IMG/VR virus record: IMGVR_UViG_3300021597_000002 | Coordinates: 1-64,000 of that record | Length of the DNA: 64,000 nucleotides | Source of the DNA: a virus | Reading direction: 5' to 3' (one strand) | In this document: positions 4,590 through 27,650 of the stretch, piece by piece | How positions within the stretch are numbered: the stretch's first letter is position 1 | How the letters are laid out: each line of letters starts with the position of its first letter | Position numbers and translations under genes: made by a program | The notes under the pieces: model-generated | Told to the model about the DNA's origin: nothing | Seen by the model: only the letters and a program-made list of their open reading frames with translations | Database searches by the model: none

Positions 4590-5057
4590 TTACTCCGCTT
4601 TAAGTTTGATTTCCACCCACGGCTTATTAGCAAGAGCGGTTTGAATAGCGACCAGCTCTTCTTTGTCTGTCGTGATTGGTAGATCTTTGCAATGCCCGTC
4701 GATAGCCAGAACGCTACCGTCAGCACGCAAGATTTCGTGACCAGATACGCTGTTGTTAGTCAGCAAGACGTGAAGCGTCGTCTCTTCTTCCGGTTCAACC
4801 TGCTCAGTGCCTGTGTCGGTATTGCCGTCTGATTGAGTACCTGTGTCGCTGTCGTCACCGTCAGTATCTTTTTTATCGCCAGTGCTTTCCGTACCAGTGG
4901 AATCACCAGCACCTACATCACCTGCACCTGTGGTTTCAGTGTCGTCAGTTACAACAACTTCAGTCTCTGTTGTTTTATCGCCAGTGCTTTCAGTACCTTT
5001 GTTATCTGTTGCTGACTTACGAGTACGGGTGTTTGCTTTTGTGGTTGCCATGGACAA
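4590..5057 (-). CDS. Low-complexity acidic T/D/G-rich protein between capsid and sheath genes
   Basis: ORF with RBS; internal repeat GTESTGDK twice; small C-terminal beta-rich domain. Confidence 0.7.
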   Translation of the reverse strand: MSMATTKANTRTRKSATDNKGTESTGDKTTETEVVVTDDTETTGAGDVGAGDSTGTESTGDKKDTDGDDSDTGTQSDGNTDTGTEQVEPEEETTLHVLLTNNSVSGHEILRADGSVLAIDGHCKDLPITTDKEELVAIQTALANKPWVEIKLKAE

Positions 5058-24746: not shown

Positions 24747-25301
24747 TTACGCCGCTTGTTCTATTGCCAAACCAGACTCTGTTAAAGCTGCTTGTACCGC
24801 TTCAATAATGCGGACCATGTAGGCGTATTTGTGAGGGACTCGCGTTGGGACAGTAATTGAACCAAAGTCCAAATACTCAAACTCTTCTTCGCTTTCAAAA
24901 TCAGTGCATTTATAAGTGTCATAGCTATGTTCTGGTGCGTATTCTTCCCAATCTTCAATATCGTAAAGCGCACGAGCTAAGCTAGAGCCGATAAGATTCA
25001 TGCGACGGCGACCTAATATGTGCTCTCTAGCTAAGGGTAAGAAAGCGTCATAATCAGGCTCTTCACTACTTAATGCTCCGCACAGGTTAGAGATCAGGTA
25101 GCCCTCATCGCAGCTGCAGAAGAACTGCGCAATAGTTCTTCCACCCATAGCGCCCCAGAATGAAGACCAAGACTTACCGTAGCATTCAATGACAATCTTT
25201 CCTTTGCCAATTTCATAGTCTTCTAAAAAAACAGTGATTGGGTCGAGGGATTCAACCTCAGTAATGCGCAACTTAATCGCTGTGCTTTGTTCGATTTTCA
25301 T
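24747..25301 (-). CDS. Phage hypothetical protein
   Basis: 184 aa ORF with AAGGA RBS. Confidence 0.75.
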   Translation of the reverse strand: MKIEQSTAIKLRITEVESLDPITVFLEDYEIGKGKIVIECYGKSWSSFWGAMGGRTIAQFFCSCDEGYLISNLCGALSSEEPDYDAFLPLAREHILGRRRMNLIGSSLARALYDIEDWEEYAPEHSYDTYKCTDFESEEEFEYLDFGSITVPTRVPHKYAYMVRIIEAVQAALTESGLAIEQAA

Positions 25302-25451
25302 GATTTTTTCCTTTGGTCGGGGTTACAAATCTAATTGCTATAACGAGAATATAATAAGATTGTGTAAATCAATCAAGGGAAAGATAGGGAAATGTGAGAA
25401 ATGACGGGGGATTTCTTATTGCTAAAACGTGCTTTTAGCAATTAGGAAGCT

Positions 25452-25628
25452 AAAAAAATGCCCCGCATCCTTGCGAGGCTACCCTAATACCCTACTGGCA
25501 GTGCAATCTATACATTGGGATAGCAATGCTCGCTCTTGGCATGAGGTTGGGGGACGACAGCCAGTGTAAACACCACTTACCGAACCCCCGTGTGCAGCTA
25601 AGGGAAGCTACGCCATTGCAAACAATGC
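25452..25628 (-). ncRNA. Candidate structured RNA of about 175 nt
   Basis: Candidate promoter at 25635-25680, intrinsic terminator at 25452-25479, nested helices with G-U pairs on this strand, no convincing ORF. Confidence 0.5.
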
Positions 25629-25681
25629 CCGTTCATCTTAGTGCGGTCACTACGCAGCCAACCACAACAAAAAAATGTTGG

Positions 25682-25747
25682 ATATAAGAAAGCCCACTCA
25701 CAAGAGCGGGCTTTGTCTTACACCGAGTTGAAAGAAGGAAGCTTTCA
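25682..25747 (-). ncRNA. Candidate small RNA of about 65 nt
   Basis: Candidate promoter at 25754-25798, 5' hairpin with CUUCCUU loop, terminator-like hairpin at 25689-25714. Confidence 0.5.
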
Positions 25748-25931
25748 CAAACGATAGTACGGACGCTTATGCGCTGGTACTACAACATTTTCTTGTTATC
25801 CTCGCCGCCTTACTAAGCCACACAATGGCGCAGCCATTGCCCGTAATTTAAACGATTAGGACCATTGTTCCTGTGTAGTTAGCATGAGTATTTTTTACAC
25901 AGGGTTATCCCCTTAATTTGGGGATAACCGC

Positions 25932-27650
25932 TTATGCTCGCTTATAAAACTTGAAGAACTCATCCAATCGCTCGATTTCCATCAAGCCAACTTGAGCGTA
26001 CTCCTCCAAGCCGTCCTCTATCCAATCACCACATGCTGACTGTATCGCAGCTCTAACCTCGGGGTAATCTTCAGCAAGACACTCAACCACACCACCGCTT
26101 TCAATTGCAGCCACTGCCTGATCTGCTGGGCTTGATTCTTCCTCTCCCAGCAATGCCATTGCGTTAGCCAGTGCACTATCAGATTGACCGTCGCTTTGCT
26201 CGCCGGCAGGAATGTAATCCACCAACCAGAAGAATGCTGTTGCGTCGAAAATATCAGGAGACTTAATGCCCTCACTACGCAGCTGCTTCTTAGAGAACAG
26301 GCGCCAACGTCCCAACTCATCAAACTCATACGGGATCTTGACGAATTGCTTCTGCAGTTTCTTCTCAAACTGTTTCGTCTCACCTTTATGCAGCTTCAAG
26401 CGACCAGTATTCAACGCTTCCTTGACCATGACACACGCATAGTCTTTTTCTTTCGGGAATCGCTGTTTCACTGAGTTAGCATGTGGAGGTCTACCCCAGT
26501 GGATGCGAGTAACATTCACACCAAGCTTTTCACACTCTTGAGCAGTTGTCAGACCGTACCCGTCCGCATCAATACCAACAGTGATATTGGTGTAGCCAGA
26601 TGTTTCTTGATGGATAAAGCGAGCAAATTGAACCCCATCCATATCTGCAGGTGCTTCGATAGCCTTAACGACCTCTACCTGTCGCTCACTACCAAAGCCA
26701 CAAACCTTACCGATCTTGAGCACTGAGCTATCTCGACCTTCACCGCCTGCAACGTCGGCAACAGCCACCCATCCCCACTCATCAACAAACTCAATAACCG
26801 CCTCAAAGCCTTTATCGACCATGCTACGGGAGATCAGGAAGCCACTTGCATCATCAGGACACACACCAAGAACACGAATGCCATACTCAGGGCTACTCAC
26901 ACCCCCGTATTCGATACGTTTTTCTCGGATAAACTTGAGGTTAACAAACGGACTCATTTCACTATTAAGCGTGATAGCCGTGTACAACCCTTGCTCTGCC
27001 AATTCCATTTGTGAATCAGCAAAGTGACCAGTTGGGCGCGTAAACTGGCTAATGAGTAGCATTTTGTTGTTGTCTTCGGTCAATGCACCACGAAGCACTT
27101 CAAACGCTCGATCGGATACACCAGACGCTTCATCGACCACCACCATGTAATCCCTACGGTGCTGACCGGCTAAGCCTTCCTCATTGCCTTTTGAACATGT
27201 TTTCCCGAAAATTTGCCATACGCCCTTGTAGCCTTTCGCATAGAAAGACTTAGCTGTAATGACGAAGTACTGCTCCAACCACGGCTGACGCTGGCAGATC
27301 TTCACCCAAAGGCGCTTAATGTATGAGAAGACAACGTTAGTTACCTGATCTAAGGAGTTTGCCGTCAACATACACAGAGATTCTGGGTGTGTAATGATGA
27401 AATGAAGACACAAAGCTGCGGTTAGGTGAGACTTACCCGTACCGTGACCAGAAGCAACAGACACACGCGCCCCGACCGGAGTCAGGGCGTTAATGACTTC
27501 AATTTGCTGAAACGATGGTTCCATCCCGATAATGTCGTAGATGAAAGCCAACGGTCGACTTCGGTAGCTCGCTGCAAAATCCAGATAACGAGGATCCAGC
27601 GTAATAGCGGCGTGCTTATGCTTTTTGCGGCTTCGGTTTCTAGCTGCCAT
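25932..27650 (-). CDS. pacB: Terminase large subunit (P1 PacB-like)
   Basis: SGHGTGKS Walker A, VVVDEA Walker B, nuclease DVAGGEGRDSS and SPDIFDA. Confidence 0.93.
   Translation of the reverse strand: MAARNRSRKKHKHAAITLDPRYLDFAASYRSRPLAFIYDIIGMEPSFQQIEVINALTPVGARVSVASGHGTGKSHLTAALCLHFIITHPESLCMLTANSLDQVTNVVFSYIKRLWVKICQRQPWLEQYFVITAKSFYAKGYKGVWQIFGKTCSKGNEEGLAGQHRRDYMVVVDEASGVSDRAFEVLRGALTEDNNKMLLISQFTRPTGHFADSQMELAEQGLYTAITLNSEMSPFVNLKFIREKRIEYGGVSSPEYGIRVLGVCPDDASGFLISRSMVDKGFEAVIEFVDEWGWVAVADVAGGEGRDSSVLKIGKVCGFGSERQVEVVKAIEAPADMDGVQFARFIHQETSGYTNITVGIDADGYGLTTAQECEKLGVNVTRIHWGRPPHANSVKQRFPKEKDYACVMVKEALNTGRLKLHKGETKQFEKKLQKQFVKIPYEFDELGRWRLFSKKQLRSEGIKSPDIFDATAFFWLVDYIPAGEQSDGQSDSALANAMALLGEEESSPADQAVAAIESGGVVECLAEDYPEVRAAIQSACGDWIEDGLEEYAQVGLMEIERLDEFFKFYKRA

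Follow-up and report, generated by a model that had tools for sequence, protein, structure and literature searches.

The stretch of DNA analysed here (the window, 64,000 nt) is part of a viral record of 78.3 kb with terminal repeats, and the nearest records to it by blastn are p0908-like plasmid prophages of Vibrio. The packaging genes pacA and pacB are encoded on the minus strand, and pacB is directly followed by an ORF-poor gap of 630 nt (25302-25931) without credible ORFs, which agrees with the non-coding cassette of about 630 bp described in a first-pass annotation of this DNA. Beyond the gap lie orf184 and a gene coding for a tyrosine recombinase of 196 aa, which consists of the catalytic domain only, is about the size of FimB and FimE, and is kept downstream of the non-coding cassette in all examined lineages. 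In the P1 genome, c1 directly follows pacB, and P1 uses the genome segment after pacB for immunity functions; no C1 homologue is encoded in the 78-kb genome. In more distant P1-like plasmids of Vibrio and Photobacterium (L112 5975-7021; L113 4062-5178), a reverse-strand gene is found after pacB, beyond which about 1 kb of unannotated DNA precedes a small tyrosine recombinase operon. A tblastn search with P1 C1 across the fetched loci, including this reverse-strand gene, gave no match.

Two features were observed in the part of the gap that is nearest to pacB: (i) a perfect palindrome, GGTTATCCCC-N7-GGGGATAACC (25903-25929), is present directly after the pacB stop codon in all lineages and carries no U-tract; the 10-7-10 layout is reminiscent of the core sites of tyrosine recombinases, but the palindrome could also form an RNA hairpin at the 3' end of the pacB mRNA; (ii) the minus strand of 25800-25900, between pacB and the promoter of a first small RNA, contains long invariant stretches, such as TAAATTACGGGCAATGGCTGCGCCATTG, a sequence similar to the 5' end of the RNA described below (about 180 nt). 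The 256-nt stretch 25680-25935 has a fold z of -7.5, and the segment 25800-25900 may represent either a third RNA unit or a 3' UTR with secondary structure.

Nearer to orf184, the gap contains a unit of about 180 nt that is predicted to be a separately promoted and terminated RNA (Table 1). As reported in the first-pass annotation, it opens with a perfect palindromic box followed by a TAAGAT hexamer and closes at an intrinsic terminator. This terminator is the only terminator-like site reported by a terminator scan of 25200-26050. No lineage lacks it, and the changes that it carries are compensatory in Photobacterium and one-sided in Xenorhabdus. The 5' end of the RNA is predicted at about 25630-25628, with a G-rich start, GGGCA.

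Table 1. Features of the pacB-orf184 region and sites of the promoter class (positions in the window unless otherwise indicated)
Feature	Position	Strand	Remarks
pacA	28806-27640	minus	
pacB	27650-25932	minus	PacB about 40% identical to P1 PacB
Neighbouring small RNA	25797-25684	minus	Same promoter class, own terminator, same orientation
Palindromic box CAACA-N6-TGTTG	25680-25665	minus	Perfect, CAACATTTTTTTGTTG; putative activator site, centre near -43; all lineages
-10 hexamer TAAGAT	25640-25635	minus	24 nt after the box; no usable -35
Three-way-junction core	25520-25630	minus	RNAalifold, covariance model R1, pair counts, separate minimum-energy folds
P1	25629-25619 with 25532-25522	minus	GGCA.UGUUUG pairs with CGAGCA.UGCU
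P2	25615-25612 with 25540-25537	minus	UGGC pairs with GCCA
P3 hairpin	25611-25594	minus	Loop UCCCUU; stacked on P2
P4 long hairpin	25589-25549	minus	Internal loop CGGUAAG/CUGUCG, invariant in every lineage
Variable linker	25480-25519	minus	About 40 nt, small non-conserved hairpins; alignments and folds
Intrinsic terminator	25479-25452	minus	GCCTCGCA-AGGA-TGCGGGGC + T7; 8-bp stem, AGGA loop, U7
orf184	25301-24747	minus	184-aa ORF of unknown function, first ORF beyond the gap
Tyrosine recombinase, 196 aa	24681-24091	minus	Downstream of orf184
Box + 23-24 nt + TAnnnT sites	56366, 39411, 25797, 25679, 21325, 6823; 74430 (genome position)	minus (all)	

The RNA was found in 13 loci of about six lineages, carried by p0908-like plasmids of Vibrio, Alteromonas, Photobacterium toruni and Xenorhabdus, and all 13 homologues have the same orientation. 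By blastn against plasmids, the whole gap was retrieved from eight plasmids and part of it from a ninth (Photobacterium toruni, 23% covered at 70.5% identity). Identity over the whole gap is 89-98% for Vibrio campbellii, Vibrio sp. 0908, V. parahaemolyticus and an Alteromonas plasmid, and 74% for V. cholerae pE7G (two records) and V. vulnificus p48/10, in which the core is 85% identical. Loci found through PacB added a Xenorhabdus bakwenae plasmid and the IMG/VR contig L010 (2667527945_000002). In Xenorhabdus and Photobacterium toruni, the body of the RNA was missed by blastn, but a clear, strongly diverged copy is apparent on reading the sequence. A covariance model of the core (R1) recovers the 13 loci with E-values from 5.5e-35 to 2.4e-18. 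This model had no further match in the window, found nothing new in 151 Vibrionaceae genomes and in 151 relatives of the Xenorhabdus host, and had no copy in the more distant P1-like Vibrio and Photobacterium plasmids, the L112 and L113 regions included, or in a contig encoding a 57%-identical PacB. Likewise, blastn against phages gave no match, three queries against plasmids returned the same 9-10 records each time, a motif scan of viral contigs gave 77 matches that were all due to chance except at the known loci, and a metagenome scan yielded one additional p0908-type copy. The homologue set leaves out the loci of the PacB relatives P0005-P0008 with 66-69% identity, from V. vulnificus (HAS6077990.1) and Logan assemblies, which were absent from the viral contigs and from 401 Vibrionaceae genomes. 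Since the wider R1, motif and metagenome searches gave at most one further p0908-type copy, the family is judged to be narrow, with about six lineages in one phage-plasmid group.

RNAalifold applied to a MAFFT alignment yielded a three-way junction made of the helices P1 to P4, with CAA in the junction between P1 and P2. Conservation and covariation uphold this fold: in the model-based alignment, 96.9% of the pair cells contain standard pairs, compared with 34-51% when the partners are slid, and 14 pairs are changed on both sides, compared with 1.9 in shuffles (none of 500 reaches 14) and 4-5 when slid. This covariation signal comes mostly from the two divergent lineages, Xenorhabdus and Photobacterium. 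Indeed, in the Xenorhabdus copy (63% identical), 16 of the 36 pairs are changed and 13 of these are still paired, nine through a double change, and in the Photobacterium copy (54% identical), 17 pairs are changed and 12 are still paired, seven through a double change. The outer helix of P4, for example, is GGGGG/CCCCC in the window and GAGAG/CUCUC in Xenorhabdus. When folded singly, the cores of four divergent homologues adopt the same architecture on the sense strand, with fold z values of -2.7, -1.0, -3.4 and -3.3, versus +0.25, +0.31, -1.5 and +0.19 on the antisense strand, and six full-length homologues, each folded alone, show the same core, a short linker and the terminator. The 201-nt stretch 25445-25645, which includes promoter-proximal bases, has a fold z of only -1.3. 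Five G-U or U-G positions are conserved in the core and the sense strand is therefore the minus strand; the first-pass annotation had reached the same strand from its G-U pairs, and the sense-only stability of the fold concurs. The three-way-junction fold is maintained by compensatory changes, with the minus strand as the sense strand.

The details of this fold differ in part from those first proposed. All four pairings named in the first-pass annotation exist in the window, and two of them, UGGC/GCCA and GGGGG/CCCCC, are borne out by the comparison. The other two, an outer helix (GGCA..UGCAAU with AUUGCA.UGCC) and a CAUUG/CAAUG hairpin, are broken in divergent homologues and show no covariation; the conserved P1, in which the 5' end pairs with CGAGCA.UGCU, uses the sequence of both.

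The same comparison bears on whether the conserved element acts as DNA, through protein-binding, recombination or replication sites, with RNA pairings that are incidental. The presence in the gap of several palindromes (the box, the operators described below and the 10-7-10 palindrome after pacB) and of a small tyrosine recombinase gene downstream would suit such an element. This is nevertheless very improbable, as the compensatory changes keep pairing and not sequence, the conserved G-U pairs would turn into C-A mismatches if the other strand were the RNA, the stability of the fold is limited to one strand, no conserved flanking inverted repeats were found and the 13 homologues share one orientation. 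An invertible switch operated by the small recombinase was rejected for the lack of conserved flanking inverted repeats and the single orientation throughout the homologues.

A small protein as the product, encoded either by a 16-codon ORF or on the other strand, is hardly credible. The 16-codon ORF starts in the window at an ATG (25543), in place of which the V. cholerae group has AAG, and Xenorhabdus lacks this ORF altogether. The plus strand of the RNA region offers ORFs of 46 and 53 codons. However, indels of 2, 4 and 7 nt, which are not multiples of three, separate the homologues, no frame is open in all lineages and none of the short peptides on either strand is hydrophobic or toxin-like. 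A type I toxin on the other strand was discarded because of these unremarkable peptides, and a CsrA sponge because the RNA has a single GGA, which on inspection of the folds is not kept as a loop in Photobacterium. No tRNA or tmRNA was detected by ARAGORN.

The box upstream of the RNA belongs to a recurrent promoter-like arrangement. Exact AACA-N6-TGTTG boxes are found at 13 strand-specific places in the genome, and at five of them TAnnnT follows at a distance of exactly 23 or 24 nt, the background being 0.012 per position. When one mismatch is allowed, the box and TAnnnT occur together at seven sites versus 1.2 expected, all on the strand carrying most genes. The portal gene has one of these sites 29 nt before its start, another precedes the neighbouring small RNA and several precede genes of unknown function. 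Eleven sites of this class, versus 1.6 expected, are present in the Xenorhabdus plasmid, including the orthologous portal promoter and both RNA promoters. Among the homologues, the -10 is TAAGAT, TACTAT or TATATT and is located 23-24 nt past the box, despite unrelated spacer sequence. The length of the spacer exceeds what a sigma-70 -35 element would allow, and the centre of the box, near -43, is at the usual position of an activator, for which it would be the binding site; the box could instead be an operator, and copies of it are also found near replication and recombinase genes. The promoter class would place the RNA in a regulon that includes morphogenesis genes. As this class is shared with the portal gene, also in the Xenorhabdus plasmid, the RNA is predicted to be made, probably, late in lytic growth. 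A late promoter of the P1 Lpa type was considered and set aside, the -22 box of P1 (AAGTTACTT) having another sequence and another position, and a gene of 143 aa at the lpa position has no clear relation to Lpa. Control of the RNA by P1 C1 was also dismissed, the genome being devoid of a C1 homologue.

Downstream of the RNA, a palindromic ATTGCTAAAA operator starts 9 nt past the U-tract and a third operator copy overlaps the -10 of a TTGATT-17-TATATT promoter of orf184. The sequence ATTGCTAWAA has three copies in 25334-25442 (the palindromic pair and the copy over the -10) and none elsewhere in the window; it is similar to ATTGCTCTAAT, the operator of P1 C1, although no C1 homologue is encoded in the 78 kb of the genome. 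The operator/promoter block is conserved in five of the six lineages, and the first downstream ORF differs among lineages. In the contig L010, the operator, the promoter and orf184 are replaced as a block and the RNA is kept; another ORF, which has a good ribosome-binding site, begins there 55 nt after the terminator (4700-4760), with no recognisable promoter in between. This arrangement fits a cis-acting role in that contig and leaves some room for read-through.

One main rival to a stand-alone RNA is a cis-acting leader that would govern read-through into orf184 and the small recombinase gene, as a riboswitch, an attenuator or a put-like antitermination RNA. The succession of promoter, structured RNA, terminator and genes is the layout of leaders, and the junction-centred conservation is aptamer-like; in both respects, the RNA resembles riboswitch leaders and HK022 put. 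It differs from them in that expression of the downstream genes has a separate promoter and operators in most lineages, a sigma-70-like promoter and three ATTGCTAWAA operators standing between the terminator and the next gene in five of six, and in that no antiterminator alternative was found; put, moreover, is made of two stem-loops of about 70 nt. No mutually exclusive terminator/antiterminator pairings were detected, the core and the terminator are both intact in each of the six full-length folds, and a candidate pairing between the 3' side of P1 and the terminator is not conserved on inspection of the alignment. Because the downstream promoter is conserved, the downstream ORF is variable, L010 keeps the RNA and no antiterminator was found, a dedicated leader function is unlikely, even when the L010 ORF without an obvious promoter is counted in its favour.

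The RNA could not be assigned to a known family. The first-pass annotation had recognised none and had suggested a search of Rfam; at the gathering score, no family matched the RNA in the window, and at E-values up to 10, the region 25250-26000 and three divergent homologous loci gave chance-level matches only, which did not recur. In particular, no Rfam family, including C4/CI and pRNA, overlaps the core (25520-25630) at E-values up to 10, and a weak, chance-level match to RyhB (E 7.9) falls on the terminator and linker (25453-25508). A literature search found no paper describing an RNA in this gap. Conservation, compensatory changes, strand-specific folding, promoter geometry and the terminator all argue for a transcribed, structured, non-coding phage RNA without an Rfam family, which also supports the structural or regulatory phage RNA supposed in the first-pass annotation.

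The other main rival is a base-pairing regulator, similar to P1 C4 or to the neighbouring RNA with its anti-Shine-Dalgarno loop, in which the P3 loop (UUCCCUU) or the linker would mask phage or host ribosome-binding sites. The neighbouring RNA is a simple hairpin with a terminator, of about 65-110 nt, whereas the RNA of about 180 nt is larger and has a junction fold. The AUCCUU core of the anti-Shine-Dalgarno loop of the neighbour is kept in p0908 and Xenorhabdus, and ribosome-binding sites that match this loop, for example AAAGAAGGAA, are present ahead of the starts 37408 and 47606. The AGCUUCCYU motif reported as common to both RNAs is indeed shared by them in the window and in its 98% twin, but not in p0908, in which the neighbour has GGUAUCCUU. 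A pairing between the two neighbouring RNAs (13/15) was rejected, as it is not conserved in p0908.

Like P1 C4 and P4 CI, the RNA is small, structured and non-coding, belongs to a temperate phage of the P1 type and has loops rich in pyrimidines, and it is located in the segment that P1 devotes to immunity. It differs from C4 in several respects: (i) C4 has about 77 nt, versus about 180 nt and a three-way junction here, (ii) there is no extended complementarity to a downstream target, the 5' UTR of orf184 being non-complementary on inspection, and no loop complementary to a downstream ribosome-binding site of the same operon was found, (iii) the promoter is of the portal class and not a C1-controlled immunity promoter, and (iv) no icd/ant-type genes adjoin the RNA.

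Some observations would nonetheless be consistent with base pairing. The P3 hairpin is nearly invariant across Vibrio lineages, with UUCCCUU to UUCCUUU as the sole change, three start regions containing UAAGGGAGG (starts 44820, 49609 and 10608) pair with the P3 loop with z of about -4, and the terminator has 6-9 U, as in Hfq-type sRNAs. However, Xenorhabdus has GUCUUGUCA and Photobacterium has UAUUUUU at the P3 loop, and in Xenorhabdus the site orthologous to the best target does not rank among the top matches to the loop of that lineage, so that loop and target do not covary. Moreover, complementarity to the 78-kb genome is at the level of chance (about 85 nine-mers versus about 100 expected; longest match 12 nt). 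The seed that characterises Hfq-type sRNAs is also lacking, the single-stranded loop and linker varying between lineages, and the invariant bases are concentrated at the junction (UGCAAYGGYGU) and the internal loop of P4 (CGGUAAG/CUGUCG) and not in a single-stranded seed. A base-pairing regulator thus seems rather unlikely.

The explanation that we favour, with a probability of roughly 0.55, is a stand-alone gene coding for a structured non-coding RNA of about 180 nt, the founder of a new family confined to p0908-like P1-type phage-plasmids, which would be expressed late and would act in trans. The unit does have its own promoter and its own intrinsic terminator, both predicted from the sequence, and no conserved ORF, as is the case for stand-alone sRNA genes. 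Its transcription would start near 25630 from an activator-dependent, portal-type promoter; the RNA would be expressed together with the late lytic genes of morphogenesis and be released at the terminator of the unit, and could then serve in trans as a scaffold for a phage or host protein or for a small ligand, and not as an antisense RNA. Such a protein- or ligand-binding role is suggested because invariant bases in a junction and an internal loop are the pattern of RNAs recognised by their shape.

A different late role, as a cofactor and not as a gene regulator, was also considered: the RNA could be a pRNA-like part of packaging or morphogenesis, or an aptamer-like decoy or sponge for a host defence protein or a signalling molecule in the course of lytic growth. 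The packaging/morphogenesis idea comes from the proximity of pacAB and from the portal-type promoter. The pRNA of phi29, a protein-primed podovirus, has about 174 nt and is built round a three-way junction, and the RNA gene here likewise adjoins packaging genes and has a promoter class in common with the portal gene; nevertheless, the RNA has no match to pRNA or any other Rfam family and no RNA requirement is known for packaging of the P1 type by PacA/PacB. We regard a cofactor of this kind as quite improbable.

P1-type phage-plasmids are common gene carriers in marine Vibrio, and the p0908 group is the source of the VCre/VloxP tool. To our knowledge, the regulation of P1-type phage-plasmids in marine Vibrio is almost unstudied. 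The RNA described here is a new candidate family with covariation support, and it joins the few structured phage RNAs whose conservation suggests protein or ligand binding over antisense pairing. As pVv01, a member of the p0908 group and a close relative of p0908, is inducible with mitomycin C (PMC4132613), a system for testing exists. Through the conserved three-way-junction RNA and the promoter class that it shares with the portal gene, an RNA layer in the lytic programme of the group becomes open to concrete tests.
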